Assembly: GCA_963751075.1 (NCBI GenBank)
Contig: CAVVTE010000012.1
Location: 8,149 to 72,148 of the forward strand
Reading direction: 5' to 3'
DNA length: 64,000 bases
From: an uncultured Chloroflexia bacterium
Lineage (GTDB): Bacteria > Chloroflexota > Chloroflexia > Thermomicrobiales > UBA6265
In this document: piece after piece, positions 1-62,429 of the stretch
Position numbering within the stretch: the stretch's first letter is position 1
Layout of the letters: every line of letters starts with the position of its first letter
Notes under the pieces: model-generated
What the model was told of the DNA's origin: nothing
The model's input: only the letters and a program-made list of their open reading frames with translations
Database searches by the model: none
Translations under genes and position numbers: made by a program

Positions 1-2554
1 GGCGCTGGTTCCGTCGTTGCGGGGCTGCCGCGACGTCGTCAGCCAGCCCGAGGGCGGGTTGCGGCGCCTGCTCCTCGATCGCCTCGCCCTCGCGCTGCAG
101 AATCTGGCCGCCGCCCAGGTCGCCCAGGTCGCCCAAGGGCACACGCATCTGTCGCGACCCGAGCTCACCTATGCCCAGACATCCCCGACCACCGAGGACG
201 GCGTCTACACGGTGGCATACGCGTACGAGCACGCCGAGGTCGGTCTCGCGGCCGGGACGCTCGCGGTTCGATTGCTCAACCACCTCCTGGCCAAGCGCGA
301 ACCCGACTTCGACTTCAGTCGCGAGCTGGAGGCGACGATCGTCCCGCTCGCTCAGCGCCACGCCGACGACTGGAACACCGGCAGCATCGTCGCTGCGGCA
401 GAGCGGCGCAGCATCCCGATCGAGCGCCTGGAAATGCGTCCCGCAATCATGACGCGCACGATCGTCGTGATGCAACTTGGTACCGGTTGCTATCAGCGGC
501 GTACGTGGGGGGCGTTCACCTCGAACGTCGCAATGCTCGCGTCCGCGATCGCCGACACCAAGAATCTCACCACTCGCCTGCTTCGGGAAGCCGGACTCCC
601 GGTTCCAGACGACGCCGTGGTCCAGGACGCCGATGAGGCAGCCAAAGCCGCCGCGGCCATTGGCTATCCGGTCGTCGTCAAGCCACCCGACGCCTCCCAC
701 ACCCGTGGCGTCACGATCGATGTCCGCGACGAGGCGGAAGTCCGAGCGGCCTTCGCGGTCGCGATACGCGAGACCCACCGGCGTCAGGTCGTCGTCGAGT
801 CCTTCATCCCTGGCAAGAACTATCGCATCACGGTCGTCAACAATCAGGTCGTCGCCGTCCGTGAGCGCCGTCCCGCCCAGGTCATCGGTGATGGCACCCA
901 CACCGTCACCGAGCTCATCGAGCTCACCAATGCCGATCCCCGGCGGGGCGTCGAGCCCGACAAGCCGCTGAAGCCCATCACCGTCGACGAGCAGACGATC
1001 GAAGTGCTGGGCAAGCAGGGGGTGACCCTCGACGATGTCCTGGAGGAGGGACGCGTCGTGCGCCTGAAGTGGTTCGACGGTCGAGCACTCGGTGGCACCT
1101 CCATCGACCGCACCGACGAGATCCACCCCGACAACGCCGCCATCGCCCGCCAGGCGGCCATGGTCATTGGCCTCGACGTCGCCGGGATCGACTTCATCAC
1201 CCCCGACATCGCGCACTCGGCCTACGAACGGGGTGGCGCCATCAACGAGGTCAACGCGCGTCCTAGCATAGGCCCACATGCCAATCCCACGGAAGGGACA
1301 CCGCGCGATGTGGGGATGGCCATCGTCGACATGCTCTTCCCGCCCGACCAGCCGGTGCGGGTGCCGATCGTGGCGGTGACCGGCACGAACGGTAAGACGA
1401 CGACCACCCGCCTCATCGCCCACATCCTGCAGACGGCCGGCAAGACGGTCGGCATGACCACCAGCGACGGCATGTACCTCGACGGGACCCGAGTTGCGGC
1501 GGGTGATCGGGCCGACGCGACAGCCGCCCGGACGGTGTTGCGCAACCCGACCATCGACTCTGCCGTGCTGGAGACGGCATGGAGCAGCATCCTGAATGAG
1601 GGGCTGGGCTTTGCCCCGTGTGATGTGGCCGTGGTCACCAATATCGCTGACGATCACGTGGGCCAAGGGGCGATCGGCACGGTGGCCGAGATGGCCAACC
1701 TCAAGGCGGCGGTGCTACGTGCCGTCGTGCCGGAAGGAGCCAGCGTCCTCAATGCTGACAACCCCTCCACGGTGGAGTTGGCGCAGGCCGCGGGTGGGGA
1801 GATCCTGTTCTTCTCGCTGGACGAACGCAACCCGGTCGTTCATGACCATGTTCAGCGGGGAGGCCGCGCGGTGGTGCTGGGCCAGAGCCCGGCAGGAGAG
1901 GTGCTGACGCTGCTAGCGGAAGGAGCGGCAACGGCGATCCTGCCGGCAGCCGAGATACCGGCCACGATGGAAGGGCGCATCCGGGTCAACATCGCCAACG
2001 CCCTGGCCGCCACGGCGGCGGCCATGGCCCAGGAGGTGCCCCTGGAGAAGATCCGGACGGCGCTGCGCTCGTTCGCGAATAGCGTGGCCCAGAGTCCCGG
2101 ACGCTTCAACCTTCTCGAGATCGACGGCCGCACAGTGCTCATCGACTACTGCCACAACCTCCACGGACTGGAAGCGATGGCGGACTTCATCAAGCGGATG
2201 GAAGCTCCGCACACCGTCGCCGCCATCTCCATGACCGGCGACCGCACCGATGCGCACATCACCGCCTTTGGCCGGCTGGCCGGCCAGATCTTCGATGAGC
2301 TCGTTATTCGGGATGCCGGCCCCGAACACATGTGCGGCCGCACGCCGGGGGAGGTGCCGACCCTGCTTCAGGCGGCGGCCATTGCTGCAGGACTCGCACC
2401 CGACAAGATCGGTCTGGCCCGCGGCAACGAGGAGGCCGCCGACATGGCGATGGCCAGAAGTCGGAGCGGCAGTTCGGTTGCACTGCTGGGGGGAGAGGAC
2501 CCGGCCGGGATGGCGAAGCACCTGACCCAACGGCACCACGAGGCCACCGTCTGA
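1..2554 (+). CDS. cphA: cyanophycin synthetase-like enzyme, paralog 1 (ATP-grasp + Mur-ligase domains); 5' end runs off the window
   Basis: ORF 17..2554 stays open back to base 2. It has an ATP-grasp block (GYPVVVKPPD, GGTSIDRTDEIHPDN), then the Mur-ligase P-loop VAVTGTNGKTTTTRLIAHIL and a C-terminal ligase domain. This is the CphA architecture. Confidence 0.8.
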   Translation, partial: ALVPSLRGCRDVVSQPEGGLRRLLLDRLALALQNLAAAQVAQVAQGHTHLSRPELTYAQTSPTTEDGVYTVAYAYEHAEVGLAAGTLAVRLLNHLLAKREPDFDFSRELEATIVPLAQRHADDWNTGSIVAAAERRSIPIERLEMRPAIMTRTIVVMQLGTGCYQRRTWGAFTSNVAMLASAIADTKNLTTRLLREAGLPVPDDAVVQDADEAAKAAAAIGYPVVVKPPDASHTRGVTIDVRDEAEVRAAFAVAIRETHRRQVVVESFIPGKNYRITVVNNQVVAVRERRPAQVIGDGTHTVTELIELTNADPRRGVEPDKPLKPITVDEQTIEVLGKQGVTLDDVLEEGRVVRLKWFDGRALGGTSIDRTDEIHPDNAAIARQAAMVIGLDVAGIDFITPDIAHSAYERGGAINEVNARPSIGPHANPTEGTPRDVGMAIVDMLFPPDQPVRVPIVAVTGTNGKTTTTRLIAHILQTAGKTVGMTTSDGMYLDGTRVAAGDRADATAARTVLRNPTIDSAVLETAWSSILNEGLGFAPCDVAVVTNIADDHVGQGAIGTVAEMANLKAAVLRAVVPEGASVLNADNPSTVELAQAAGGEILFFSLDERNPVVHDHVQRGGRAVVLGQSPAGEVLTLLAEGAATAILPAAEIPATMEGRIRVNIANALAATAAAMAQEVPLEKIRTALRSFANSVAQSPGRFNLLEIDGRTVLIDYCHNLHGLEAMADFIKRMEAPHTVAAISMTGDRTDAHITAFGRLAGQIFDELVIRDAGPEHMCGRTPGEVPTLLQAAAIAAGLAPDKIGLARGNEEAADMAMARSRSGSSVALLGGEDPAGMAKHLTQRHHEATV

Positions 2555-3136: not shown

Positions 3137-4029
3137 CTAGCCGCAGCAAGAGCCCTCAGGAACGCAACACCGACCGGTGCACTCCCACCCCCCGCCGGAC
3201 CAGTCGCCCTCGGGCAGACCGTCACAATCCGCGTCGCCCTCGCAGCAGCCTCCGGCAAAGTTGCCCGAGTTGTCCTCGAGCTCGCACGATGGGCAGCAGC
3301 CACCGTTATTGTCCGTCTCGGCTTCCGAGCAGCAGAAGTCCCTGAAGATGACATCGAGGTTATGATTGTGCAGCAGCCGCAATTGGTGCACAGGTCCCGG
3401 TCGCAGAGGCCGTTACTGTCCCACGGACAGCAGGTGAAGTCCGGGTCATCGCCGATGCAGTAAGTCTGCTCGAAGGCCTGCTCGTCGGTGTCCGCCGCGC
3501 CCGCGCAACACTGGGAGCCACCCGCGCAGGCCCCGGTGCCACCCACCGCCGAACAGCAGGTGGTGCCAGCGGCCCAGCACGAGAGGGCTTCGCCGCCGAA
3601 CCCGCCGCAGCAGACCGGGGCGCTATTCGGACAGCAGCCTGCGCCACAGGCGGTCTGGCCCGCTTGACATTGCGCCGGCGGCAACGGCGTCACACCAGCC
3701 GGCGGTACCACCGGCGCAGTCGCCGCACAGCCACTGACGCCACTCTGGCAGCGGCCCTTGTAGGCACAGGGGTTGCGCCGCAGCGTCTTCTTGGCCTTCT
3801 TCTTCTCTTTCTTCTGGGTCTTACAGGTGGACGGGTTCGAGCTCGCACAGTTGCAGATGCGGATCTCTTTCTCGTCCTTGTTGTTCTTCTTGGCGCCGGT
3901 CTCGCGGGTCAGGCCCACGCCCGTGGCGCCGGCGAGGGCGCCGGCGACGAGACCGCGTAGAGCCGCGAGGCGGGTGAGGCGGGTCGTGCCAAGGCGTTTG
4001 ACGAGATGATCGAACTGGGATCCTTCCAT
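3137..4029 (-). pseudogene. leader + Lys-rich linker + Cys-rich secreted protein, family member 1; apparent 1-nt frameshift near 3360
   Basis: N-terminus is MEGSQFDHLVKRLGTTRLTRLAALRGLVAGALAGATG...RICNCASSNPSTCKTQKKEKKKAKKTLRRNPCAYKGRCQ. After ...CTNCGCC the protein-like Cys-rich frame switches to ORF 3137..3391 (NLDVIFRDFCCSEAE...CCVPEGSCCG*). The rest of ORF 2368..4029 is Ala/Arg/Pro read-through that overlaps cphA. Confidence 0.7.
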
Positions 4030-4172
4030 GGCTGGTCCATCCTTTGTCGCTGACTGATCACGAGAGACCCTCCATGGGCTCCCGGAGCCGCCACGTCACT
4101 GTGGTCTGGCAATGCAGCAGTCCTCCACCTCCCCTCGTCCCCAGGCGCTCGCGACGCACTACACCACTAGAT

Positions 4173-4203
4173 ACTACACCCGAAGGACGAGATCGGATGC
4201 ATC
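4173..4203 (-). promoter_or_regulatory. bipartite upstream motif copy 1 (plus strand ACTACACC-N14-GGATGCATC)
   Basis: ACTACACC at 4173-4180 and GGATGCATC at 4195-4203, spacer exactly 14 nt, 144 nt upstream of the start at 4029. A second ACTACACC lies at 4158-4165. Confidence 0.6.
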
Positions 4204-4567
4204 GGACGGAGCGATGGACCCGAAGCCTCCGACGTCCCTGTTTGGCGAATGAGCCCAAGCGTTTCGGCGCTGACCATGACGACAGGTCATGCCAAAAAGG
4301 ATAAATTGTGCTACGGAGTCCACCATACGCCATGAGGGCCGGTTCGTCTAGAGCCTGTTATGACCTTTTCTGACGGTTTATTCGCTCAGAGACCGTTTCA
4401 TCAAAGGATGGTTCTCCTTTGTGCCGTATCCGCTCGTTCCCCTTGAAGGGTCTCGGGACTCATGATCGGCAGGGGCCTCGCGGTGCGGCGCATTGTGTGC
4501 CGCGTGCCTTCCAATCATCTGTGTCCTCGCTCAAAGTGCATAACACGCTCTAGCCGGAAAGACCGAG

Positions 4568-4834
4568 GGCATCAGCCCCGTTACGCCGGGTGTGCGGTAA
4601 GGAGAAATCTTTCCTCTGCGTGGCACATGACCCCGGTTGGTCACCGTGCGAGGTGCCCTTTCTTTCGACCGTGGGCGAGCCGGTTGGCCGTCTGGAGGGA
4701 ACTCGGGTCTCTCGCAAGGAGCGAGAAAGGACGGTAGGGGTGTGTGCGAGCACTTCGCCCGAAATCCCTTGGCCCGACCCCTCCCAGCGCCGCCGCATCG
4801 CCTACGGGCCGCCTGCAAGTAGCGCGGGACGTGA
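4568..4834. ncRNA. conserved non-coding block, copy 1 (candidate structured RNA or other cis element; strand unresolved)
   Basis: About 85 percent identical by eye to 10013-10287. Indels between the copies break every reading frame. The adjacent C-terminal coding sequence of the flanking paralogs is less conserved than this block. Confidence 0.3.
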
Positions 4835-4865
4835 AGAGGCCGGCGCTCCTCAGGCGCCGGCCTCT
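4835..4865. terminator. 12-bp GC hairpin (AGAGGCCGGCGC / GCGCCGGCCTCT) 59 nt downstream of the Cys-rich gene 2 stop
   Basis: Inverted repeat with loop TCCTCAG, followed on the plus strand by GTTTAGG. Copy 2 carries an A at 10295, which gives A.C on plus-strand RNA but G.U on minus-strand RNA. Confidence 0.5.
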
Positions 4866-4923
4866 GTTTAGGATGCAATCCGCTCTGGTCTTCGCTGGCC
4901 GGTGGCCTTAGCTCGCCAGAGGG

Positions 4924-5852
4924 CTAGTCCCTGAGGATGCAGACGCCGTTCACGCACACCGCGACATTCGGGTTGTAGAACTCGTCGCAGTCCTTCTGGC
5001 CTTCTGCGCGACAATCGGCAAGACACGACCCGAGCACACAGACGGTCGGGAAATTGCCCCCGAAGTCCGGGCAGTCGTTGTCGTTGTTGCATTGCCCGTT
5101 GTACTGCTCGTCATCGAAGATGCATACATCGTCCGGCGCCTGGGGATTGTCGGTGCCGTCCTCGTTGCAGACCAGCGGCTCGAGGTCGGGGTTATTGGTG
5201 GACAGGAGCTGTGCGCAGTCGACGTTCTCATCGCAGGCGACGAAGCCAAGGCAGCGGCCGTTGAGGTTACAGATGCCGCCACCGCACTGCTCGAAGCTGG
5301 TGCAGTTGACGCACTGGCCCGTGGCCGTGTTGCAGACCAGACCCGCGTTGTCGCCAACGCAGCCAGCGTTGTTGCAGTTGAACCCTGGCGGTGGTGGTTG
5401 CGGCGCCACACACTGACCCGTGGTGATGTTACAGACGTTCGGCGCATCGCACTGCGCGTTGGTGGTGCAGTTCACGCACTGACCGCTGATGCAGACCCGC
5501 GGGGCGCATTGCGAGTTATTCGTGCACCCGATGGGAGCAGGCGTCGCACAGCCACTCACGCCACTCTGGCAGCGACCCTTGTAGGCGCAGGGATTGCGCC
5601 GCAGGGTGTTCTTGGCCTTCTTCTTGTCTTTCTTCTTGGAGCGGCAGGTGTTGGGATCGAGCTGCTACAGATACAGATCCGCCGCTCCTTGTCGTTGTTG
5701 TTGTTGTTCTTCTTGGCGCCGGCCTCGTGGGTGAGGCTCATGCCTGTGGCACCGGCGACTGCACCGGCCACCAATCCCCGCAGAGCCGTCAGACGGCTGA
5801 CGCGGGTGGTGCCGAGTCGCTTGACCAATTGATCGAACTGGGTACCGTCTAT
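4924..5852 (-). pseudogene. Cys-rich secreted protein family member 2; start position is ATA and there is a 1-nt frameshift near 5650
   Basis: Reverse strand reads ATA GAC GGT ACC CAG TTC GAT CAA TTG GTC AAG (IDGTQFDQLVK), aligning with MDGTQFDQLIK of member 3. N-terminal frame is ORF 5556..5828 (...ERRICICSSS). C-terminal frame is ORF 4924..5559 and back-translates to ...DPNTCRSKKKDKKKAKNTLRRNPCAYKGRCQSGVSGC. Confidence 0.7.
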
Positions 5853-6049
5853 GCTGTTGTCTGTCCTTCTTCACTACCTGATCGCGCGGGGCTGCCGCCA
5901 CCGGCTCCCTCGTCCGCTGCTACCCGGTGCACTTGGTCCGTCTTGCCACTACCCCTGCACCCACTCTATCCCGGCGTAAGAGACCGCGGCGGTCAGGAAT
6001 CGGCCCTCTTCATCGACCGCGACCGTCCGGACACTCTTTGTCACTTGAT

Positions 6050-6080
6050 ACTACACCCGACTGACGAAATTGGATGCATC
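6050..6080 (-). promoter_or_regulatory. bipartite upstream motif copy 2
   Basis: ACTACACC at 6050-6057 and GGATGCATC at 6072-6080, spacer 14 nt, 198 nt upstream of codon 1 of member 2. Confidence 0.6.
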
Positions 6081-6671
6081 AGATGGATCGAGGGATTCTA
6101 CGCCCCCGACCTCCCTCTGTGGCGATTGAGACCCGGACGTCTTCGACTCCGCCCCGTCGTGGAGTTCACGTATTGGGGGCATCGTTCGGGGTGGCTACCC
6201 CCGTGATCCGCGCGGAGATCCTATCGATCCCGAGGCCGCAGCACTCAACACCATCACGAGCGGGTCGATCCCTTCGCCCGCTTCCACGTTGTGCTCGAAC
6301 CCCTGAGACCACGCGAGCCGGTCATGATGCGCCCCACCCTGGAGACAGATCCAGCGACGGCCTTCTCCGCAACAGGCCATACCCCTGCCCTCAATACCGC
6401 GGAGTTGAGTCGCTGCCAGATTGGGCCCATTTTCGGTATCGGGGGGGACGTCGATGACAGGGCGCCAGATATCCTCGGACGAGCGCCGTCAGCGGGCGCG
6501 CCTATCTGCTACTGTGACACGCATGATCTTGCTCCCGCCGTCGCCACGGTTGCGCGTCGCCGGCACCGCAACTGTCGTGCCCGAGGCATTCTTGCAGTGC
6601 CAGCCGGCCTCGGGGTCACGCCTCGCCACCACGTGACGCCCACCGGGCGCGGGCGATGAGCATTGCCTAAG

Positions 6672-6821
6672 ATGAAAGGCATGCTCATCATCCGCGGCAT
6701 CAGAGTCTTGCGGGGCCCGAGCATCCTGGCGCCGGTGCTAGGCCTCCTGCCGTTGGGGCAGACCCCACATGCTATACGCTTCCGGCGGATGGTGGTCCTT
6801 GGAGGAGGCCGGCTGTGCTGA
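6672..6821 (+). CDS. 49-codon upstream ORF whose N-terminus mimics the CphA N-terminus; its stop overlaps the cphA paralog 2 start (GTGCTGA)
   Basis: ATG at 6672 gives MKGMLIIRGIRVLRGPSILAPVL..., compared with MLTIRYTQVLRGPNIWVPVP for cphA2. TGA at 6819-6821 overlaps the GTG at 6815-6817. Expression is untested. Confidence 0.35.
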   Translation: MKGMLIIRGIRVLRGPSILAPVLGLLPLGQTPHAIRFRRMVVLGGGRLC

Positions 6822-9380
6822 CGATCCGCTACACCCAGGTATTGCGGGGACCGAACATCTGGGTTCCGGTGCCGGTCATCGCCTTGACGGTAGCCATCGA
6901 GGAGCTGGAGGAGCGGCTGGAGCGGGAGACCCCCGTCTTCTTCGATCGCCTGGTCGTCTCTCCCGTCGCTGGAGACGCACCGGGAGACGGTCGGTCGGCT
7001 GGAGCTGGGCTTTACCCGCCTGCTGCTTGGCCCGATCGCCCTCGCTTTGCAACAGCAAGCCGGGAGCGTGGTCCAGTATTCCGAGACGCACCCGATGCCG
7101 CGCCAGGGGACCTACACCGTCGTCTACGACTACCAGCACCCGTTGGTGGGGAGGGGCGCTGGCAAGCTGGCCGTCCGGCTCCTTAACCATCTGCTCTACG
7201 GAAATGAGCCCGCTTTCAACTTTACCCGTGAGGTGGAAGAGAAGATCATCCGACCGACCGAGCACCACGCGCTTGGCCCATTCCTCGACACGATCACGGC
7301 GGCGGCCCGGCGCCGCGGCATCCCGGTCCTGGAGATCAGCACGAGACCGCCGCTCCTGCAGCTGGGCACCGGCGCCTACCAGCGCCACCTCGAGGGGTCA
7401 GTCCCCGCCGAGACCGGCACCGCTACGAGCATTGCCGGGAACACGAAACCCACCCGCCTGCTGGGCGGGGCGGGGATGCCGGTGTCCTCCGAAATCGTGG
7501 TACACGACGTCGACAGCGCTGTCCAGGCCGCCAGGCGCCTCGGCTATCCAGTCGTCCTGGAGCTACACCATGACCGCCGGAACCACGGCCCTGGCTGCGC
7601 CCTGGATGGCGATGCCCAGGTTCGGGCGGCCTTCTCGGGTATCATGCGATTGGCACTCTCCCGACAGGTCGTCGTCAAGCGCGCCGCCCCCGGCACGCTC
7701 TACCGCATCCTAGTGGTGGGCGACCAGGTGGTGGCGGTGGCCGAACAGGGACCGACTCCTGACCTTGGAGACGGCGCGCCCATCGGGGTCCACGACGTCA
7801 ATGACCGCGACGATCCGGAGTCGCCGGCAGTCGTGACGGCGCCAGATCCCTCCCGGGAGTCCATCGCGGACGATAGCCCGGTCATCCTTCGGGCAGCCAC
7901 CGGCCACCGTAATAGCGGCGGGATCGCGATCGACCGCACCACCGACATTCACCCGGACACCATCACCGTCGCGCGGCATGCGGCATGCCTGCTGGGACTT
8001 GAGGTGGCCGGAATAGACATTGTCACCGCCGACATCTCGCAGTCCATGCTGACGGGGGGTGGCAGTATCGTCGCCGTCGATCCCGCGCCGGACCTGCGCC
8101 TGCACACCCACCCGAGTGAGGGAACGCCGCGCGACGTCGGGATGGTCATCGTCGATCACCTCTTCCCGCCCGGCCAGCCGATGCGGGTGCCGATCGTGGC
8201 CATTACCGGCACAAACGGCAAGACCACCACCACCCGCCTCATCGCCCACATCATGACTACGGCCGGCAGGCGGGTCGGCATGACCACCAGCAACGGTCTG
8301 GACATCGCCGGCCTGCCGCTCGCCATCGGGGATCAGGCGGGGGCCGGCGGCGCCGGGAAAGTGTTGCGCCACCCGGCGGTTGACTATGCCGTGCTGGAGA
8401 TCACCCACGGCCACATCCTGCGCCCAGGGCTCGCCTTCGACCGCTGTGACGTGGCGGTGGTCACCAATGTGGGTAACGATCACGTCGGCACGATCGGCAT
8501 CACGACGATCGAGGACCTGGCCCGGGTCAAGGCGGTGGTGCCGCGTGCCGTCGTCCCCGAAGGGGCGAGCGTCCTCAATGCCGACGACCCCTTGACCGTC
8601 GCGATGGCCGAGGCGGCGGGCGGGGAGATTCTCTACTTCTCGCTGGATGAGGACAACCCGGTCGTTCATGATCATGTTCAGCGGGGAGGCCGTGCGGTGG
8701 TACTGCGGCCAAGCCCGACCGGGGAGATGCTGACACTGCTGGCGGATGGGGAGGCGACGGCGATCCTCCTGGCCGCCGAGATCCCGGCCACGATGGAGGG
8801 GCGCATCCGGGTCAACATCGCCAACGCCCTGGCCGCCACCGCAGCAACCATCGCGCAAGACGTGCCAGTGGAGACGATCCGGGTAGCGCTGCGGACCTTC
8901 GCCAATAGCGTCGCCCAGTCCCCCGGGCGCTTCAACGTCCTCGAGATCGACGGCCGCACCGTGCTCGTCGACTACTGCCACAACCTCCATGGCTTAGAGG
9001 CGATGGCTGATTTCGTCAAGCGTATGGAGCCCCCCCACACCGTGGCCGCCATCTACATGCCAGCCGACCGCCCCGATGAACACATCACCGCCTTCGGCCA
9101 GCTGGCAGCTCAGGTCTTCGATGAGCTCGTCATTCGGGATGCTCACCCGGAGTACCAGCGCGGCCGCACGCCGGGGGAGGTGCCGGCGCTGCTCGAGGCC
9201 GCCGCCATCGCAGGAGGACTCGCACCTGACAAGATCAGTCTGGTCCACGACAAACTGGAGGCGGTCGACTTGGCGATGGCCAAAAGTGGTCGCGGCAGTT
9301 TGATTGTGCTGCTGGGAGCAGACGATCCGGCCGCGATCTGGAATCACCTGACGCAACGGCACCACGAGGCCACCGTCTGA
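6815..9380 (+). pseudogene. cphA: cyanophycin synthetase-like enzyme, paralog 2; apparent frameshift near 6955 and a degenerate ATP-grasp region
   Basis: GGAGGAGG lies 6 nt before GTG 6815. N-terminus MLTIRYTQVLRGPNIW...PVFFDRLVV is in frame 2, then SLPSLETHRETVG... continues in the frame of ORF 7047..9380. Mur-ligase P-loop is VAITGTNGKTTTTRLIAHIM. The last ~330 aa are very similar to paralog 1. Confidence 0.75.
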
Positions 9381-9595
9381 TCATCGCCTGAAGCGGGCGG
9401 TCGCGAACCTGAACGGCGGATTTGCCGGCGGATCGGAGCAGCTCTTGTGTGCGGCGGCAGGTTCCAATGAGGCGGCGGCGCCGGGGCGGTGGCGGTCGTC
9501 CGTCTCCTCCGTACGTCTCGAGCGACCTGGTCGAAGGAGAACTCGCGATACGGGAAATCCCTACGTTTGCAGGAGCCTCCACTGTTCACACAGCC

Positions 9596-9916
9596 ATTTC
9601 ACGGGCCAAGGCACGTTATTCACACGTCTCCGCACCGGCCAACCGATACCTCCGCAGTGTCTGGCCGGGGTTCAATCCCGCCTTTCACGGGTTCGGGGGA
9701 GAAGAAGGCTACATCCATGAGAAGTTCCGGCAAGCGGGCGGATGGTCCCTGTGTCTGCCCTGGTTACGCTGGGTCCATCGCTTCAACCGCCCCTCCGGCG
9801 TTCCCTACCCCCTCTACATCGAAGACAAGCTGCGGAACTACATCTTGCGGAACTACATCTTCGGGTTCACCGAGCTCCGACTCGACCCCACCCCAGCACT
9901 GAAGCACTTCGCGTAG
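9596..9916 (+). pseudogene. C-terminal fragment of a glycosyltransferase-like gene (GFGGEEG motif), no credible N-terminus
   Basis: ORF 9422..9916 ends FNPAFHGFGGEEGYIHEKFRQAGGWSLCLPWLRWVHRF..., resembling the WGWGGEDxE region of GT-A galactosyltransferase-type enzymes. Contains a 15-nt in-frame tandem duplication (LRNYI x2). Confidence 0.3.
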
Positions 9917-10012
9917 CACTTCCCGCCAGCGACGATTGCGGCGGTGGCGCGAGAGGCGCTGGAAAGTGGCATCAGCGCTCCTCCGGAATCAGCGTTGGCC
10001 GGAGTCCCCGCG

Positions 10013-10287
10013 GGCATCAGTCCAGTAACGCCAGGTGTGGGATAAGGAGAAATCTCTTCACGCCACGGTGAATGACCCCAGTTGGTCACCGTCCGAGGTG
10101 CCCGTTCTTTACGACCGTGGACGAGCCGGTTGGCCGTCTGGAGAGATCTCGGGTCTCTCTCAAGGAGTGAGAAAGGAAGGTAGGGATGGGCGCGAGCACT
10201 TCGCCCGCAATCCCGTGGCCCGAACCCCTCCCAGTGTGCCGCCGCACCGCCTGCCCGATGGCTGCCTGCAAGGAGCGCGGGACGTGA
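10013..10287. ncRNA. conserved non-coding block, copy 2
   Basis: Aligns with 4568-4834 from GGCATCAG onward; the flanks upstream of that point are unrelated. Confidence 0.3.
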
Positions 10288-10318
10288 AGAGGCCAGCGCT
10301 CCTCAGGCGCCGGCCTCT
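10288..10318. terminator. hairpin homologous to 4835-4865 (one arm substitution)
   Basis: AGAGGCCAGCGC / GCGCCGGCCTCT with the same loop. Confidence 0.45.
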
Positions 10319-10377
10319 GTCTTAGGATGCAATCCGCTCTGGCCTTCGTTGGCCGGTGGCCTTAGATAGCCAGGGAC

Positions 10378-11319
10378 CTAATCTCGCTTAATGCATACGC
10401 CGTTCACGCACACTGCGACATTCGGGCCCCAGTATTCGTCGCAGTCTTCCTGCCCTTCAGAGCGGCAGTCGGCCAAACATGCCCCGAGGACACAGAACTC
10501 CGGGAATGCGCCGCCTAGCTGGCAGTCATTGTCGGCATTGCACGACGTGAATACATAGTCGCTCGGATCGAAGACGCAGACGTCCTCCGTGAACTCAGAG
10601 CTCTCGTTGCCGTCTTCGTTGCAGACCAACGGCTCGAGGTCGGGGTTTGCAGTGGACAAGATATTTTCGCAGTCGGCGTTTTCGTCGCAGGCGACCTGGC
10701 CAACGCAGCGGCCATTGCTATTACAGAACCCAAACCCAGCCCGGCACTGCTCTAAGCTGGTGCAGTTGACGCACTGGCCGGTGGCCGTGTCGCAGACCAG
10801 CCCGGCGTTATCCCCAACGCAGCCCGCGTTGTTGCAGTTGAACCCGGCGGCGGCGGTGGCGGCGCGACGCACTGGCCGGTGCCGGTGTTGCAGACGTTCG
10901 GCGCGTCGCACTGAGTGCTGTTGGTGCAGTTCTGGCATTGGCCGCTGATGCAGACCCGCGGGGCGCACTGCGAGTTATTCGTGCAGGCCGATAGGAGCAG
11001 GCGTCGCACAGCCACTGACGCCGGTTGGCAGCGACCCTTGTAGGCACAGGGATTGCGCCGCAGGAGTCTTCTTGGCCTTCTTCTTCTCTTTCTTCTTGAT
11101 CTGGCAGGTGGCCGGGATCCGCACTCGCACAGATGCAGATCCGGATCTTCTTTCGTCGTTGTTGTTGTTGTTCTTCTTGGCGCCGGCCTCCTCGCGGGTG
11201 AGGCTCATGCCCGTGGCGCCGGCGACTGCGCCGGCCACCAACCCCCGCAGGGCCGTGAGACGGCTGACGCGGGTGGTGCCGAGGCGCTTGATCAGTTGAT
11301 CGAACTGGGTCCCGTCCAC
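10378..11319 (-). pseudogene. Cys-rich secreted protein family member 3 (recent paralog of member 2) with several frameshifts
   Basis: GTG start gives MDGTQFDQLIKRLGTTRVSRLTALRGLVAGAVAGATG. The expected RKKIRICICASADP, KKKEKKKAKKT, CTNNSQCAPRVCISGQC and C-terminal segments lie in three different frames (ORFs 10975..11319, 10808..11704, 10752..11015, 10378..10968). Confidence 0.7.
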
Positions 11320-11570
11320 TCTGTGTCCACCCTTTCTCGGTGAGCGATGGTGGGGGTCGCCCGCAGTGGCTCCCCATCCTCTCCTTGAATCCTCTCCTAC
11401 GAGACGTGTGCTCCTCAGGGTGCCCGGGCCCTCCTATTCCCGCACCCCATCTCGTCGCCCTACCCGCCCGCGTGACCGCGGACGGTACCGCACACGATGC
11501 CGAGGTCAATGACCATGGTGCATCAAACCACGCACCGAGCCATCGACCGAGACGGTCCATGTACACTAGT

Positions 11571-11601
11571 ACTACACCGAGGAGGCGAAATCGGATGCAT
11601 C
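11571..11601 (-). promoter_or_regulatory. bipartite upstream motif copy 3
   Basis: ACTACACC at 11571-11578 and GGATGCATC at 11593-11601, spacer 14 nt, 252 nt upstream of the start at 11319. Confidence 0.6.
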
Positions 11602-11806
11602 CTTTGCACCGAGCACCCCTCATCCCAACCACTGCTGATCGAGATGTGTCCGGCTTCGACGCGGTGCGACGTGACGACGACACACTATAGCGCACGCCAA
11701 GCATATATTATGCCGTCGAGTACAGAAAACAGCAATACCGCAGACAACGTTCTGTACTCCATGGGGTACGCTAGCGCCTACCGGGACATCTCGGTCGCGG
11801 CGTGGG

Positions 11807-12572
11807 GTGACGATCATGGACCACTTCCCCAGGGTGGGCGAGGAGCTGCTGAGCGCGGACGACGTCGCCCGCTACCTCGAGCTGGAGCCGGTGACCATCT
11901 ACCGCTGGTGCCGGGAGGGGCGCCTGCCCTGCATGAAGCTGGGCAAGGTCTGGCGCATCCGCCGCACCGCCCTCGAGACCTTCCTGCGCCGGGCCGAGCA
12001 GCCCCGGACGCTGACCGCCCATCTGGGCGCCTTCTTCGCCGTGCCCGACCAGGTGCTCGCCGTCGCCGAGGACGCGGCCCTGCTGGCGCGCCTGGACGCC
12101 GCCGTCTTCCAGGTCGCCGAGGCGCGCGACGCGCTGCTGGTCAAGTTCTACGACCCCACGATGGCGCCGCGGGAGGAGCTGCGGGCCGGCTTTCGGCGCG
12201 AGGGACTGGAGATCGAGCGGCTGGAGGGGGCGGGGCGCTTCCGCTGGTGCCCGGCGGGCGACCCGGCCGGCGCGGTCGCCTCCCTGCGCCATCTCCTGAG
12301 CGAGGAAGGCTCGGCGGGACGGCCGGTATGGGTCGTCTTCGACTGGCTGGGAGAGCCAGAGTTGGACGCGGCATTGCGCCAGCAGGCGGAACTGGCCGAT
12401 CTGGTGGCGACGTACCCGCTTGGTGGTCACGACCGGGGTGGTGGCGCCGGCGCCGCAGGAGTGGCCGTCGCCGGAGTCCCAGTGGCAGCTGTTGGGATCG
12501 TTGCGCGGCGTCATCCGCTACGCGTCGACGGGTCTCCTGTTGAGTCGGGTGGTCTCGTCGCTCGAGGCGTAA
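11807..12572 (+). pseudogene. excisionase/MerR-type HTH fused to a MEDS-like (DcmR-type) domain; apparent frameshift near 12415
   Basis: N-terminus is LLSADDVARYLELEPVTIYRWCREGRLPCMKLGKVWRIRRTALETFL. After ...ATYP the listed frame turns Gly/Ala-rich. Frame 0 instead reads LVVTTGVVAPAPQEWPSPESQWQLLGSLRGVIRYASTGLLLSRVVSSLEA* and ends at TAA 12570-12572. Confidence 0.6.
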
Positions 12573-12641
12573 GGCCAGGGGTCTCGCCGCGCGAGGCGTA
12601 AGCCAAGTGGTACCGCCGCTCGAGGCGTAAGCCCAACGGTG
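12555..12641. repeat. 3 x 29-nt imperfect tandem repeat, each unit carrying ...GAGGCGTAAG (the stop-codon region of the HTH gene)
   Basis: Anchor GAGGCGTAA occurs at 12564, 12593 and 12622. Confidence 0.8.
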
Positions 12642-12708
12642 ACCCGAGCACAACCGGGGACGTGGGCCGACACCTGTCGCACCCCCGTCTCGACGATCGT
12701 CGCCGGCA

Positions 12709-12762
12709 AAAACGGATGCATCCTTTGCACCGAGCACTCCCTATCCCCAGCCCTGCTCCCTA
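12709..12762. repeat. direct repeat of 11588-11640 (contains the GGATGCATCC half of the bipartite motif, lacks ACTACACC)
   Basis: CGGATGCATCCTTTGCACCGAGCAC is identical in both copies, and similarity continues ~25 nt further. Confidence 0.6.
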
Positions 12763-12932
12763 TGAACGCCCCTCACTCCCAACCGCCACTCAGCGAGTGG
12801 GAATGAGGGGCCGTGAACACACCGACGGCGCGCCCGAAACGATGCGCGCCGTGGGCAAGATGTCAGATTCCGCGTGTCCTGGCGCGCTCCCTCGCGCCGG
12901 TCGTTGGTCAGTTACGGGCCACTGATCGGTGT

Positions 12933-12962
12933 GGGTCGCGATTCTCGCGGGAATCGCGACCC
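12933..12962. terminator. 11-bp hairpin (GGGTCGCGATT / AATCGCGACCC) followed by GTCCTTCTT, downstream of Cys-rich gene 4
   Basis: Inverted repeat read from the sequence. Confidence 0.4.
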
Positions 12963-13043
12963 GTCCTTCTTACACCCACCGTACGAGAGAACTGAGCCCC
13001 AGCTCCGAGTGAGCATCTGCGCGACCCGCTCCCTGATCGTCCA

Positions 13044-13919
13044 TTACACCGCCGCCCGACAGAACTGCGCTCCGGCTCCTGTGGTAGCGGGATCACACGC
13101 TCCAGAGCAGCACCCTGGGTTCGTCCCACTGGCTGGGCAGCCGCCCGGAGCAGGATTCGCGTTGACTACGCAGCAGCGGCCGTCACCCGGCGCTCCGGTA
13201 GGAGTTTCACAAATCATGCCCAGGCCCGGCGGGTCTGTTGGGCAGCATGTACCCAGGCTGTTTGCAGCGGTTAATACGCATGTCTCGGTTGCGAGCGAAC
13301 AGCAGACATCGGTCGCACCATTTTCAATGCATGTCCGGCCCTGGCAGCATGTGCCCTGCGTGCCAGGGGTCGTGCACGTCGCGCCACCGGACCGGCACGT
13401 CGAACACTCGTTGGCGGTGTCGGCGAGTGGTCCCGTCGTGGACCCACCGGCGTTACAGATCCCGGAGCAGCACTGCCCATCCGCGGTGCAGGCCGCGGTC
13501 AGGGCCAAGCAGTCCTCCTCGTTACAGGCATTCAGATTCGGTTTGCAGGTCCCGGCCTTCTTGCTCCCCGGTGAGCAACAGATTTCCCCGGGCTTGCACG
13601 CCCCGCCGCATTCCGGCGGCGGTGGTGGTTTCGGCGTCTTGACGCACTTGCCCTTATAGTCATACGGGTGCTGTCGCAGGTGCCGCCTGGCCTTTTTCTT
13701 CGAGAATCGCTTGGTAACGCAGCCGATCTGCTGGGGATTGTTGTCACCACAATGGCAGATCGTCCGTTTGCGCCGGTGGGCCTCGGTCTCCTCAGGCGCG
13801 AGGCTCGCGCCCGTCAGCGCCGCCACGGCTCCCGCGGCCAGGCCCTGCAGCACCCGCAGGCGGCTGAGCCGCGTGCGGCTGAGACCCTTGATCAGGTTAT
13901 CAAACGTCGTCCCGTCCAT
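13044..13919 (-). CDS. Cys-rich secreted protein family member 4 (intact)
   Basis: MDGTTFDNLIKGLSRTRLSRLRVLQGLAAGAVAALTGASLA...TICHCGDNN...KKKARRHLRQHPYDYKGKC, then a Pro run and a >30-Cys Gly/Thr-rich domain. A single open frame of 291 aa. Confidence 0.8.
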   Translation of the reverse strand: MDGTTFDNLIKGLSRTRLSRLRVLQGLAAGAVAALTGASLAPEETEAHRRKRTICHCGDNNPQQIGCVTKRFSKKKARRHLRQHPYDYKGKCVKTPKPPPPPECGGACKPGEICCSPGSKKAGTCKPNLNACNEEDCLALTAACTADGQCCSGICNAGGSTTGPLADTANECSTCRSGGATCTTPGTQGTCCQGRTCIENGATDVCCSLATETCVLTAANSLGTCCPTDPPGLGMICETPTGAPGDGRCCVVNANPAPGGCPASGTNPGCCSGACDPATTGAGAQFCRAAV

Positions 13920-14041
13920 TGCTTTCTGGTCCTCTCATCGTCACCGTCGGGCTGTGTCGGCTGGCCCTCATCGGCCATCCATTGATTTCTGGTCTTTTCG
14001 TCACCGTCGGGTGTGTAGGGTGGCCCTCATCGGCCGTCCAT
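13917..14041. repeat. tandem duplication (63 + 59 nt) of the start-codon region of Cys-rich gene 4
   Basis: TCCAT plus upstream sequence recurs at 13917, 13980 and 14039. The upstream copies read ATG GAT/GAC GGC CGA TGA. Confidence 0.8.
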
Positions 14042-14236
14042 CCTGCTCCGCCCCCTGGGGACTTGCGCTCGCCGGGTTGCCCGGATCCTCCTCTGCCGCA
14101 ACCGACGGATAGGTACTCACGCGATCGCGTGGTCTTGGATGGCATGGCACACGGAACGGAGTGGCCGAATGGCCGAAGAGCGCCGTCGTCGGCGCCACAG
14201 GTCGGGTCATCGATCACGACGGCCCGTATAGGTATC

Positions 14237-14267
14237 ACTACACCGGGCCCGCGCGATCGGATGCATC
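14237..14267 (-). promoter_or_regulatory. bipartite upstream motif copy 4
   Basis: ACTACACC at 14237-14244 and GGATGCATC at 14259-14267, spacer 14 nt. Confidence 0.6.
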
Positions 14268-14351
14268 CGGTGCTCTGGGACCGGTCGGAGGCGGGGTTGA
14301 TCCAGGGAATCCAAACGTCCGGGGGCGGTGTATATACAAAGGGAAGTAGCA

Positions 14352-14469
14352 AGTGATTGTAGTAAATCGGGTTCGCGCGGCCAGACTTCCCCACGGAAAC
14401 GGGTGTCACGCTTGGTTATAGTAGATCGGGTTCGCGCGGCCAGACTTCCCCGCGGAAACGGTTGTCACG
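14352..14469. repeat. 2 x 59-nt imperfect tandem duplication (intergenic)
   Basis: ATCGGGTTCGCGCGGCCAGACTTCCCC occurs at 14366 and 14425. Confidence 0.8.
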
Positions 14470-14663
14470 CTGGAGTCTCGTCGGCTCCAACGTCGCCTCT
14501 GATCCGCCGCGAGCCCGTGGTGGATCGATGGACTGTTGGTGATCGCTCGGTCCGGCGGCAGAATGGCTCGAGGTGGAGCAGATTGTCGAGCAGCGCTGCT
14601 CGAAACACTGTCGATGCAATCTTCGCGCTGTTCAAAGCGCCAGCGGCGCGGCCGGGAGAATTC

Positions 14664-15218
14664 ATGGTGCTGTTCCGACACATTCAAGGGCTGGTGCTCT
14701 GGAGCCTGCTGACGGCGTTGCTGGCGTTCACTGTGGTGCCAGTGGCGGCCCAGAATATTGGGTACTTCGGCAAGAATCGGCTGGAGTTCGCGCAAGTCGA
14801 CTCAGATTCGCTCCCGGATGCGACGGGAACCGGCATCGTCGACTACAAGGGCGGCAAGGAGCCGTCGTCGCAGTGGCGGGCATCATTTCGATTTACGGGG
14901 CTTGAAGCGAGAGCAAGCTATACCGTCGTAGTCAAAGGCCGGTTTGGCGACCGGGGCTCCCCGGAAGAAGATGTCCTTTCCCCGTTGTGCTCATTCACGA
15001 CCGACGCCGCTGGGGAGGGGAGCTGCTTCTGGTATTTCCGGGGCCTGGCGCGGCTCAATCTGGTGCAACTGCGTGCAGGGGACGAAAGCGGCTCCCGGGT
15101 GCTGGAGGCGAGCCGCGCTGGCGAGCTCGGCTCGATCGAGACAGAGCCCAACCGCTTCTCGCCGGGCGGGGAGATCCCAGCGCACAAGAAATCCCAGAAC
15201 GGCAGGGATTCCCAATAA
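14664..15218 (+). CDS. secreted hypothetical protein (signal peptide)
   Basis: ATG at 14664 follows GGGAGA. N-terminus is MVLFRHIQGLVLWSLLTALLAFTVVPVAAQN. No family recognised. Confidence 0.6.
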   Translation: MVLFRHIQGLVLWSLLTALLAFTVVPVAAQNIGYFGKNRLEFAQVDSDSLPDATGTGIVDYKGGKEPSSQWRASFRFTGLEARASYTVVVKGRFGDRGSPEEDVLSPLCSFTTDAAGEGSCFWYFRGLARLNLVQLRAGDESGSRVLEASRAGELGSIETEPNRFSPGGEIPAHKKSQNGRDSQ

Positions 15219-15428
15219 GGGGGGTCCGCCCGCACCCCCTGGCTCGGCAGACCCAGAACGGCAGGAATTCCCAATGAGGGTGGGTGCGCCCGCACCCCCG
15301 GTTCGTCAGACCCGGAACGGCAGACACTTCCAATGATGGTGGGTGCGCCCGCACCCCGGTTCGTCAGATTCGGAACAACAGGAATGCCTAATGAGGGGGA
15401 TGCGCCCGTACCGAGGATCGTCAGACGC
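15195..15428. repeat. 4 x 58-59-nt tandem array; each unit repeats the last codons plus a stop (TAA/TGA) of the preceding gene
   Basis: Anchor GAAC(G/A) occurs at 15198, 15257, 15316 and 15374 (GAACGGCAG in units 1-3, GAACAACAG in unit 4). Units end ...CCAATAA, CCAATGA, CCAATGA, CTAATGA. Confidence 0.85.
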
Positions 15429-16468: not shown

Positions 16469-16523
16469 CGCTCCTGTCTCAACCCGCTTGGGAGCCTCCG
16501 CGGGGGAAGCATCCCCACCATTG

Positions 16524-17382: not shown

Positions 17383-17452
17383 ATCAGGATTTCGCGAACC
17401 TCACGCCTTCGGCATCCCGCGGGATACGCGTCAAGACCGATAGATGACATTG

Positions 17453-17568
17453 ACGAGACTATCGAGGTCGGCATCATTCGCCGTCCATGTCTGGCGGGCC
17501 AAGCAGATTGGCGAGAGTATCGAGATCGGCATCATTCGATGTCCAAGTCTGGTGGGCAAAGCAGCTGG
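17453..17568. repeat. 2 x 58-nt tandem duplication; on the minus strand each unit ends a reading frame with ...PPD(L/M)D(I/G)E-TGA
   Basis: TATCGAG(G/A)TCGGCATCATTCG occurs at 17460 and 17518. Confidence 0.8.
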
Positions 17569-17809: not shown

Positions 17810-17925
17810 ACCGGAATCAGCTATGCAGCGTGCGACGAGCCCTGGAAATGCGGCATTCAGCTCATCAACCGGGATCAGCTATGCAGCGTGCAACGAGCCC
17901 TGGAAACGCGGCATTCAGCTCATCA
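17810..17925. repeat. 2 x 58-nt tandem duplication
   Basis: ATCAGCTATGCAGCGTGC occurs at 17816 and 17874. Confidence 0.85.
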
Positions 17926-17985: not shown

Positions 17986-18103
17986 GGAGGCACTCCGAGA
18001 GGTCCAACCTGCCGCGTGCTTCGAGATCCTGGGCCAGGGCTTTAGGAGGCACTTTGAGAGGTCCAACCTGCCGCGTGCTTCGAGATCCTGGGCCAGGGCT
18101 TCG
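17986..18103. repeat. 2 x 59-nt tandem duplication
   Basis: GGAGGCACT...GGTCCAACCTGCCGCGTGCTTCGAGATCCTGGGCCAGGGCTT occurs at 17986 and 18045. Confidence 0.85.
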
Positions 18104-18373
18104 AGGATGCGCGAAAGCGGCCCATCTTCAGCCCATCGCTGGAAGAGCGGGTGGCGGCCTGGTAATTTTGAAAATCAGGACCGTTAGGTGAGGTGATGCG
18201 AAACACTCTGAGCGCTCAAGCGTTTCAATGCATGTTGATGGTTGTTCCATATCGTGTGAGACCGTCTGAGTCGTTGCGCGGTGTGGAACGGATCATGCTG
18301 GAATGGAGCGACTGGTGAGGGGTTCCGTCGCCCCGCTCACCCCGCGCATGCCATGAGAGAAGGGGGAACCACG

Positions 18374-21720: not shown

Positions 21721-21733
21721 GGGGGAGAGGATC

Positions 21734-60955: not shown

Positions 60956-62429
60956 TCACCCGATGCAGTTCGGCACCTGCGATCCGGAACAGTTGTTCGG
61001 GGTGTTGTTGGTGACGATGTCGGTGGAGCCGAGGGTCACCGTGCCGCCTCGTTGAAAATCCCCCCACCATCGCCGCCAAGCCGTATCCAGGTTTTCAACG
61101 GTGTTGCCTGTCACCTTGGATCCCGCCTCCAGGTTCGCGGTGCCGGTGTTGAAGATTCCCCCGCCATTGCCGCCGGTTCCTCCAACGGTGTTGCCCGTCA
61201 CGCTGCTGCCATCCTGCATCGTCAGTCTGCCGTCGTTATAGATCCCCCCGCCATCGCCGAAGACTGTCGTGTTGCCCGTCACGCTGCTGCCCGTTTTCAG
61301 CGTCAGTGTGCCGTCGTTATAGATCCCCCCGCCATCGTTATTTCCGGTGTTGTTCGTCACGATGCTGCCGGCCTCCAGCGTCGCGGTACCACCGTCGTTG
61401 TAGATTCCCCCGCCGGCAGCTGACCCGTTGCCCGTCACGCGGCTGCCATCCTGCAACAGCAGCGTGCCGCCGTCGTTATAGATCCCGCCGCCGTTGGGTG
61501 CGAAGTTGTCCGTCACGGTGCTGCCGGCCTCCAGCGTCAGCGTGCCGTAGTAGTTGTAGATTCCCCCGCCAGAGCCGAGGACGGCATGGTTGCTCGTCAC
61601 GGTGCTGCCGGCCGCGAGGCGCACCACCCCTCCGTCGTTGTAGATGCCGGCACCCGAGTTGGACACGCTGAGGCCCCGAATGCTCGCTCCCGCCCCCAAC
61701 GTCAGCGTGCCTTCGTTATAGATGCCCGCCCCATTGGCGGGCGCACCGCCGCCGGTGATCGTGACGTCGAGGAGGGTCAGCGTGCCATAGTTGACGAACC
61801 CCCAATAGGACACGTCGCGTTTCGCAATCGCCAGCCCCTGGACCGTTACGGTGGCGCCCTGGGCGACCTCGATCACGGCGCAAATACACCCGGCGTCGTT
61901 CTGCAGGATCGTCTGGTCGGTGCCGGCTCCCACCAGTGTGAGGTTCTTGGTGATGGTGGCAGCGATATCTGGGAAGGTGCCCGCACAGAGGGTCAGGGTG
62001 TCCCCGGATTGCGCGGCGTCGATCGCCGCCTGCAGGTCCGCTCCCGACGGGAGGCAGGAGGTGCCAGAGCCCAGGCCGCCACCTGTCGGCGCGGCACAGC
62101 GGCCCGCCGCATCCGTGACCAGACCCTGGCAGCAGTTCGCGCGGTTGCCGGTCTTGGGCGTCTGGCCGATCGTGGCGCATGAGCCCTTGCTAGTTGCCGT
62201 TGCCCGAGTCCTGGCCGGTGCGCTGCCCCTTCCGGTTGTCCTTGCGGCGGCCCGTGCGTTGACGATTGCGGGCGCTCCGGCGGTGCCGGGGCCCGGCCTC
62301 GCTCTCGTCGTTCAGGAGCGCGGCGAGGGCTCCCGCCAGAGGCAGGGAAGCCCCCAGGCGCAGCAGTCCCCGCCGGGTGCCTGCGGCAGAAAGGGACGTC
62401 ATCAGGCGGTCGAAACGCTCCGTATCCAT
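60956..62429 (-). pseudogene. leader + Arg/Lys linker + Cys module fused to a parallel beta-helix (GGGIYN-repeat, Pmp-like) protein; 1-nt frameshift near 62190
   Basis: N-terminus is MDTERFDRLMTSLSAAGTRRGLLRLGASLPLAGALAAL...RHRRSARNRQRTGRRKDNRKGQRTGQDSGNGN*. The next frame continues SKGSCATIGQTPKTGNRANCCQGL... into ORF 60956..61933, which has repeated GGGIYNDG.L.L..GS.VTGN units. Confidence 0.7.

Follow-up and report, generated by a model that had tools for sequence, protein, structure and literature searches.

We analysed a stretch of 64,000 nucleotides (nt) from an uncultured Chloroflexia bacterium (contig CAVVTE010000012.1 of assembly GCA_963751075.1), referred to as a whole as the window, in which four minus-strand genes, m1 to m4, encode cysteine-rich proteins with a common N-terminal module (Table 1). 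Six-frame translation, alignment and profile matches confirmed these four paralogs and their shared module of about 95 amino acids (aa), as proposed in the initial annotation. The frame-joined conceptual proteins comprise 291–316 aa with 34–39 Cys. The first ~100 residues of m1 are 46–76% identical to those of the other members, and these ~100 residues are all that can be aligned among the four, with the exception of m2 and m3, which remain alignable beyond. Residues F6, D7 and R20, four Cys and the sequence Y-K-G-x-C are invariant in the module of m1–m4. The parts of the module had been listed correctly, except that the Asn/Lys run and the KKKxKKKAKK tract occur only in m1–m3, with HRRKR...KRFSKKKARRH in their place in m4.

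A profile search with the module retrieved 46 clusters, and the database relatives matched at E = 1e-22 to 3e-39, indicating that the likeness of the module reflects homology and not chance. In the following, related loci carry L numbers (L001, L002, L006 and L014–L018) and metagenome relatives carry P numbers. All relatives found with m4 and with the profile come from soil metagenomes or metagenome-assembled genomes (MAGs), none of them named; among species-representative genomes the module is carried only by uncultured Thermomicrobiales and Chloroflexia MAGs, and an exact-match search of the window DNA against these genomes gave no match. As the initial annotation had supposed, the module cannot be assigned to a named family: neither the Pfam, NCBIfam and PDB sequence searches nor Foldseek gave a positive result, and no characterised family was hit in Pfam, NCBIfam or PDB. 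The repaired m1, m2 and m4 proteins (m3 shares the m2 cargo) had no Pfam or NCBIfam match at all, and a literature search on family-related terms and the PPGNP motif returned nothing relevant. Genes m1–m4 belong to a real, unnamed, lineage-specific multigene family of the Thermomicrobiales (Chloroflexota).

The proteins follow a common plan of a leader, a Cys-stapled polycationic ββα domain, a Pro-rich linker and a variable Cys-rich passenger. Unlike the four window genes with their large cargo behind the module, the typical member is a small protein of 127–190 aa, in which the leader and the basic Cys domain are followed by a short Pro-rich linker and a single conserved mini-domain with six Cys (C..C..(V/I)CC..G.K.AG.C.PN.NAC). 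Gene m4 has this complete layout plus a 160-aa extension, also present in P0002 and P0010, while m1–m3 form a second subtype characterised by R(I/V)CxC...LRRNPCAYKGRC..SGC.

Analysis of the module indicated that only its first ~47 residues are a signal peptide and that the remainder is a folded mature domain, so that the module is not the single trafficking unit that had been suggested. The leader starts with an M-D-G-x-x-F-D-x-L-I-K helix, followed by the motif (S/T)-R-L-(S/T)-R-L-x-A-L-(R/Q)-G, an Ala/Gly-rich core and a small-x-Ala site. It had been described as resembling a signal of the twin-arginine translocation (Tat) pathway without the twin arginine (RR), and this description held: the RR position of m1–m4 reads TTRLTRLAALRG, TTRVSRLTALRG or SRTRLSRLRVLQG, with no consecutive pair. 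Among the 149 leaders collected, 41 carry RR, 70 carry R-x-x-R-L and 27 a single (S/T)R. Relatives that share the same mature domains keep RR, as in P0044 and P0075 (SRRPRR) and in P0135, P0143 and P0160 (SRRAF and similar). The core hydropathy is ~1.8 (Kyte-Doolittle mean of the best 13-residue window) in the RR and RR-less sets alike (p = 0.13; the split is approximate, as leaders with an RR pair in the N-terminal helix were labelled RR too). All 126 leaders scored for it have a small-x-small (-3/-1) site ahead of the basic run, with Ala at -1 in 109. Tat signals have weakly hydrophobic cores, and basic residues right after the cleavage site disfavour Sec export; the low core hydropathy and the basic start of the mature part thus fit Tat. 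Because relatives with the same mature domains, and also a fifth gene of the window (Table 1), carry a true RR, the leader is by its sequence features a Tat-type signal, the twin arginine of which has degenerated in many cases (T-R-L-T-R-L in m1–m4). Like the Tat signals modelled by TIGR01409 and PF10518, it has a tripartite layout with a polar N-region ending in (S/T)-R-x-x-A/F-L-(R/K)-G, and some relatives retain SRR. It differs from them in that m1–m4 and about 65% of the family have no second arginine (R-L or R-x-x-R-L) and in that the strongly conserved N-terminal helix lies outside the classical motif. Tat export despite the degenerate RR, with cleavage after the small-x-Ala site, appears probable on these features. 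The same leader type is also found on unrelated secreted proteins, including Stig1-like and β-helix proteins.

According to structure prediction, the segment behind the leader, previously read as a Lys-rich/CxC linker, folds as a domain and belongs to the mature protein. The AlphaFold2 (AF2) model of m4, built with the family alignment, contains a β-hairpin and a helix at residues 50–92 with a predicted local distance difference test (pLDDT) score of 87–95, and residues 104–132 reach ~85. A profile of the 43-residue region identified 204 clusters at 50% identity among 1.84 billion representatives, most with the domain at residues ~45–95, directly behind a leader. These clusters fall into two groups, leader-bearing proteins similar to those of the window and a generic, near-neutral form of ~37 aa with two Cys and the consensus ICH(V/R)PPGNPxNxxT(I/L)x(V/L)..A..AHL..H..D..G.C. 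The generic form is present in 1–5 copies in cargo of the type IX secretion system (T9SS; Por_Secre_tail), in myxobacterial Cys-rich acidic-repeat proteins and in proteins of >2,000 aa, and its members match the profile of the window domain at E = 1e-13 to 1e-15. Comparison of the two forms revealed the same β-β-α layout, with the β-hairpin and the helix lying between the same first and last Cys. The window version differs in being polycationic (net charge +12 to +15 in m1–m4; +13 in m1), in the frequent loss of the His and in a gained internal Cys pair (CxC...C), and it occurs singly, right behind the signal peptide, whereas the generic copies are internal. Judged from these matches, the window domain derives, as a basic form with an additional disulfide, from a widespread, unnamed ICH...AHL...GxC domain, which apparently occurs in the Chloroflexota and also, on the basis of the T9SS sorting and myxobacterial repeat domains, in the Bacteroidota and Myxococcota. 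Pfam and NCBIfam hold no model of the domain; the PDB sequence search with its profile gave only a chance match (E = 2), and Foldseek searches of the PDB with both AF2 models (m4 and the m2 cargo) gave nothing with E below 1. An unnamed family and an unnamed small domain are thereby defined, the latter with about 200 clusters at 50% identity.

The C-terminal regions of m1–m4 are rich in Cys and of three kinds, and they agree with the earlier description: m1 ends in CCVPEGSCCG, m2 and m3 share one two-part cargo consisting of modules X and Y, and m4 has 30 of its 34 Cys past the module. In line with the proposed use of structure prediction, AF2 gave a confident model not only for the m4 domain but also for the m2 cargo, with a pLDDT of 80–92 for residues 60–211 (module Y) and a predicted template-modelling score of 0.61; Foldseek found no structural neighbour of this module in the PDB. 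In metagenome proteins, module Y occurs behind three N-modules with the same leader type, namely the CxC subtype of m1–m3 (P0056 and P0058), the two-Cys ICHR subtype (P0059–61) and an unrelated Stig1-like basic module (P0055, P0062 and P0065–67). The m1 cargo is found intact behind the ICHR subtype in P0123 (46% identity over 192 aa) and P0093. Conversely, at least six cargo types follow the module in metagenomes, and the domain precedes repeats of GCSPANNTQGSCPAGQIC, CTNNNDC repeats and, in P0106 and P0138, β-helices with Chlam_PMP repeats like that of the fifth gene. Passengers of 200–450 aa with β-helical or fibre-like character are carried by the same module, and P0056 (m2-type cargo) and P0093 (m1-type cargo) have at their C-terminus an intramolecular-chaperone domain of the Peptidase_S74 type (E about 5e-11), which is typical of trimeric fibres and tailspikes. 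The swapping of cargos inferred from the four window genes was thus borne out, and the metagenome relatives make it more extensive than one window shows: by sequence comparison, N-modules and passengers recombine freely within the family. Combinatorial shuffling of extracellular modules rich in Cys is thereby documented for a soil lineage of which little is known. The family resembles Stig1-like proteins (PF04885) in being secreted, Cys-dense and modular, and MAG loci of the family also contain genes that have this type of leader and true Stig1 matches (L001, E = 2e-20; L002, weakly); in contrast to these, m1, m2 and m4 do not match PF04885 at E<=1.

The number of Cys is even in 123 of 141 family members (87%, p = 2e-20). 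Within the domain, Cys are also lost and gained in pairs: the ICHR subtype lacks both Cys2 and Cys3, and P0038 and P0043 have acquired two Cys together. This parity pattern indicates disulfides and not a metal site, suggesting an oxidising, extracytoplasmic location. Within the domain, Cys1 would pair with Cys4 and Cys2 with Cys3, and all Cys are probably disulfide-bonded outside the cell. The cargos carry a net charge of -5 to -24 across m1–m4 (-24 in m1), so that mature m1–m3 are charge dipoles with about +13 on the domain and -20 to -24 on the cargo, and a net charge of -7 to -11. Mature m4 has a net charge of +7, and the small family members, with ~85 aa and about 10 Cys in the mature form, reach well above +10.

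Upstream of m1–m4, 174–348 nt before the start codon, we identified the promoter-like motif GATGCATCC-N14-GGTGTA(G)T (short form GATGCATCC-N14-GGTGTAGT), which has five pattern matches in the window, two of them overlapping at the m1 site, versus 0 expected. Family genes in L001, L014–L017 and L018 have the motif upstream as well, and some of these genes encode a Stig1-like mature part. Transcription is predicted to start ~7 nt after GGTGTAGTAT, and the family genes would have long 5' untranslated regions (5'UTRs) of about 130–320 nt, in the window at 4030–4203, 5853–6080, 11320–11601 and 13920–14267, in L001 at 9721–10000, and likewise in L014–L018. Blocks such as GTGTCCGCGCGGTCGCGGTC and GGGGGAGGTGGTCGGA are common to the 5'UTRs of different MAGs. 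An RNA structure was not supported by RNAalifold analysis of six related 5'UTRs (covariation term +1.28, compensatory changes at 1 of 42 pairs), and Rfam searches of the window at gathering thresholds and of 3900–6400 at E<=1 found only three tRNAs. A gene for an HTH_17 DNA-binding protein is divergent from m3, and L014 and L018 have homologs of it (71–72% identity) that likewise diverge from a family gene, in each case with the palindrome GGATGCATCC between the gene pair. The protein may therefore regulate the family through the GGATGCATCC palindrome of the shared promoter, which makes the two a candidate regulator-operator pair. No relatives of this regulator were found in the representative genomes, and a scan of these genomes for the promoter motif gave six matches, none ahead of a family gene; only one has a plausible position between Chloroflexota genes, upstream of a cupredoxin-like lipoprotein gene. 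A consensus scan gave no support for reading the motif as σ70-type. Immediately 3' of the HTH_17 gene (12693–12731) there is a further GGATGCATCC palindrome, the fifth, which has decayed and has its -10-like part split off by an insertion; it sits beside a 29-nt x 2.9 tandem repeat (12551–12635) that overlaps the end of the HTH reading frame. Genes for an extracytoplasmic function (ECF)-type sigma factor (16524–17288, minus strand) and a zf-HC2-containing, RskA-like anti-sigma factor (15467–16687, minus strand) are located next to the family cluster; this pair was rejected as the factor for the shared promoter, as the motif is absent upstream of the sigma gene.

As had been noted before, m1–m3 are frameshifted, m2 has ATA as codon 1 and m4 is intact, and the positions of the lesions could be refined. 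In m1 a single frameshift lies between 3355 and 3379, in m2 a 1-nt deletion lies near 5657, and in m3 six single-base indels (near 11152, 11112, 11065, 11026, 10987 and 10846) form three compensating pairs; as read, m3 is truncated after 114 aa by a stop at ~10975. Comparison of the frame-corrected m2 and m3 gave a synonymous divergence (dS) of 0.50 and a nonsynonymous divergence (dN) of 0.14, with all Cys kept and no nonsense codon. The dN/dS ratio of 0.28 and the conserved Cys suggest that both genes were under purifying selection for nearly all their divergence, and the frameshifts more likely stem from errors in the assembly or consensus, or from very recent damage, than from old pseudogenes. 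Further frameshifts in the window affect the N-terminus of a second cyanophycin-synthetase-like gene (cphA2) and the fifth gene, and in the syntenic MAG locus L018 both the m1-like gene and cphA contain many; L018 lies on a 443-kb contig, whose 'contig_7616'-style name may point to a long-read assembly. That m1–m3 are genuine pseudogenes of a decaying cluster, with only m4 functional in this genome, is a doubtful but serious possibility. It would account for the eight indels and the non-ATG first codon in m1–m3 as the sequence stands, and two further points speak for it, namely that the m3 indels lie outside long homopolymers and that the m1-like gene of L018 is broken too. Evidence against decay comes from the selection seen at this degree of divergence, from the absence of nonsense substitutions after frame correction, and from the compensating pairs of indels, which flank segments still encoding conserved motifs. 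Frameshifts also fall in genes outside m1–m3 (cphA2, the fifth gene and L018 cphA), and the 57–60-nt duplications in the window (Table 1) hint at assembly problems.

On balance, we infer that the family consists of exported, disulfide-rich modular proteins that are surface-tethered or secreted, and we hold this account to be probable. The family genes would be co-regulated from the shared promoter, and their products would leave the cell by the Tat or a Tat-derived route, with the leader cut after T/A-x-A and, to judge from Cys parity, with the Cys oxidised to disulfides. Most speculatively, the cationic ββα domain may bind anionic envelope polymers or other anionic surfaces and display the passengers, which are variable, mostly acidic, Cys-rich, and β-helical or fibre-like; the family would then be a combinatorial set of surface or matrix proteins, not toxins. 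Wall-binding modules (SLH, LysM, choline-binding modules and basic tails) provide an analogy by function only, in that a small end module is attached to diverse extracellular passengers, and binding to anionic polymers through charge is plausible, but they have no sequence or fold relationship to the family domain. Several observations weigh against the account. All of m1–m4 are without the twin arginine, and the Tat models TIGR01409 and PF10518 had no match on m1, m2 or m4 (NCBIfam E<=10, Pfam E<=1); in favour of a Tat signal, TIGR01409 scored 15.0 bits on P0135, just below the cut-off of 16.7. Disulfide-rich proteins are classically Sec substrates, so Sec or another route may be used. The motif is unlike a σ70 promoter and is a putative promoter, and of about 8 loci with enough upstream sequence only 3 have the HTH_17 gene next to them. 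Export, cleavage, disulfides and expression are predictions from sequence, tethering is deduced from charge and architecture only, and the net cationic small members would also fit an antimicrobial role. The leaders offer a natural series of Tat-like signals in which RR is replaced on otherwise identical cargo, and with it a means to gauge how far Tat export depends on RR in organisms other than the usual models.

A bolder form of the same account, which we consider unlikely, is that the RR-less MDGxxFDxLIK...TRLTRLxALRG leader and the cationic ICH-type domain together constitute a previously unrecognised export-and-display system of the Thermomicrobiales. The Tat-derived signal would then work without RR or use a dedicated receptor, a new wall- or surface-anchoring domain would follow it, and passengers would be shuffled onto the leader-domain unit under one dedicated regulator. 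If true, such a system would be functionally analogous to sortase- or SLH-based display, or represent an antagonistic effector repertoire.

The initial annotation had seen in the conserved N-terminus and variable cargo the logic of polymorphic toxins or effectors, in which a constant trafficking N-terminus is combined with variable toxic C-termini and paired immunity genes. The family does resemble such systems in its constant module, its demonstrably recombining C-termini and its several paralogs per locus. In contrast to them, no toxin, enzyme or immunity-like family was matched by any cargo or relative (Pfam, NCBIfam), and the passengers look structural or adhesive, being Cys-knot-like or repeat modules, some with adhesin-like β-helix repeats or Peptidase_S74 fibre-type ends. 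Nor does a conserved immunity-like reading frame follow the genes in the window, L001, L018 or L006: m2 and m3 are followed by a non-coding block, m1 by the end of cphA, and P0009 in L001 by another Cys-rich gene with a Tat leader. The window contains no dedicated secretion-system genes, and the family has no linked T5, T6 or T7 secretion genes and no RHS or filamentous repeats. We therefore regard a toxin function as improbable. A repertoire of secreted peptides for antimicrobial action or competition, cationic and rich in disulfides like defensins, snakins or bacteriocins and diversified through the shuffling of modules, would agree with the size, Cys content and charge of the typical mature member and with the positive charge of m4, as well as with the rapid diversification, the multiple paralogs and the dedicated regulation. 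The charge dipole of m1–m3 argues against a simple cationic-peptide role for these three, which are net acidic in the mature form; the long β-helix and fibre-like passengers on the same module are atypical for such peptides, and no immunity or transporter gene is linked, making this explanation rather unlikely for the family. Hardly credible is the reading as precursors of ribosomally synthesised and post-translationally modified peptides (RiPPs), with a long conserved leader of the NHLP or Nif11 type, variable Cys-rich cores and nearby tailoring enzymes. The long conserved N-terminus, the hypervariable Cys-rich C-terminus and the many paralogs are indeed shared with such precursors, but the N-terminus is a signal peptide followed by a folded domain with no GG cleavage motif at the module end, and the passengers reach 450 aa and are predicted to fold. 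From the gene content of the window, L001 and L018, no RiPP maturase gene is present near the family loci; radical-SAM, LanM, cyclodehydratase, ATP-grasp maturase and C39-ABC exporter genes are all missing, and the adjacent ATP-grasp gene encodes a full cyanophycin synthetase.

Table 1. Features of the window
Feature	Position	Strand	Remarks
m1	3137..4029	-	leader aa 1-46, basic CxC domain aa 47-94, acidic CC-pair cargo
m2	4924..5852	-	cargo: module X (CTNNSQC...), Pro linker, module Y (GFNC..AGCVG.NAGLVC...)
m3	10378..11319	-	GTG start; cargo of the same type as m2
m4	13044..13919	-	intact, 291 aa
m4 leader	13779-13919	-	
m4 basic 4-Cys domain	13644-13778	-	
m4 family mini-domain	13524-13610	-	C..C..CC..AG.C.PN.NAC
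m4 Cys-rich extension	13047-13523	-	160 aa
Motif upstream of m1	4175..4203	-	GATGCATCC-N14-GGTGTA; begins 174 nt before ATG
Motif upstream of m2	6052..6080	-	begins 228 nt before start codon
Motif upstream of m3	11573..11601	-	in intergenic region shared with divergent HTH_17 gene
Motif upstream of m4	14239..14267	-	begins 348 nt before start codon
HTH_17 DNA-binding protein	11807..12601	+	Pfam HTH_17, E = 1.6e-15; divergent from m3
Fifth gene	60956..62429	-	RR leader (MDTERFDRLMTSLSAAGTRRGLL), Arg-rich linker, small Cys motif, β-helix
Cyanophycin-synthetase-like gene (cphA)	17..2554	+	context, outside the family, as is cphA2; pair identified with Pfam and tblastn; convergent with m1
Second cyanophycin-synthetase-like copy (cphA2)	~6815-9380	+	convergent with m3
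Conserved 3' non-coding block	4563..4920		downstream of m2
Conserved 3' non-coding block, copy	10008-10373		downstream of m3
Tandem duplications (1)	13915-14041, 14360-14471, 15193-15426, 16037-16212, 17449-17564, 17810-17925, 17986-18101		
Tandem duplications (2)	20351-20583, 21603-21721, 21795-21915, 25842-25963, 39697-39814, 62705-62828		

The fifth gene had been described as a similar leader, linker and Cys motif in front of a β-helix, and all of these parts were found; it differs from m1–m4 in having a canonical twin arginine (AAGTRRGLL) and no CxC domain. Its single frameshift falls between the Arg-rich linker and the β-helix. In the relatives P0106 and P0138 a CxC domain does precede the same kind of β-helix. 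In frame upstream of the fifth gene (62190–62558, minus strand) lies a degenerate second copy of the leader, MDRERFDARVKQLAAAGSRR..., followed by MDTERFDRLMTSLSAAGTRRG....

Two of the family genes are convergent with cyanophycin-synthetase-like genes, and this pairing recurs in L018 (cphA at 9253–11794). The first ~50 codons of cphA2 are in a different frame. The two copies of the 3' non-coding block are 86% identical, whereas the synonymous sites of the adjoining genes differ at 36.5%. The block contains a GC-rich hairpin, the indels between its copies are not multiples of three, and it was not found in the other loci; Rfam gave no match, the m2 copy having been searched at E<=1 and the m3 copy only in the window-wide scan at gathering thresholds.

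Two paralogous Ala-rich proteins of 275 aa are encoded at 18281–19108 and 19379–20206 (plus strand); both have signal-like N-termini and hydrophobic C-terminal tails, one has a Gly/Arg repeat, and neither matches Pfam. The window also contains 13 tandem duplications of unrelated sequences with a period of 57–60 nt and 82–96% identity between the copies, which differ mainly by substitutions (10 of the 13 are without indels). These duplications stem either from faulty assembly or from an unusual process of mutation. The one at 13915..14041 (59 nt) takes in the start of m4 (ribosome-binding site, ATG and first two codons), and the one at 21795–21915 (58 nt) causes a frameshift in the N-terminal part of a class IV aminotransferase gene.

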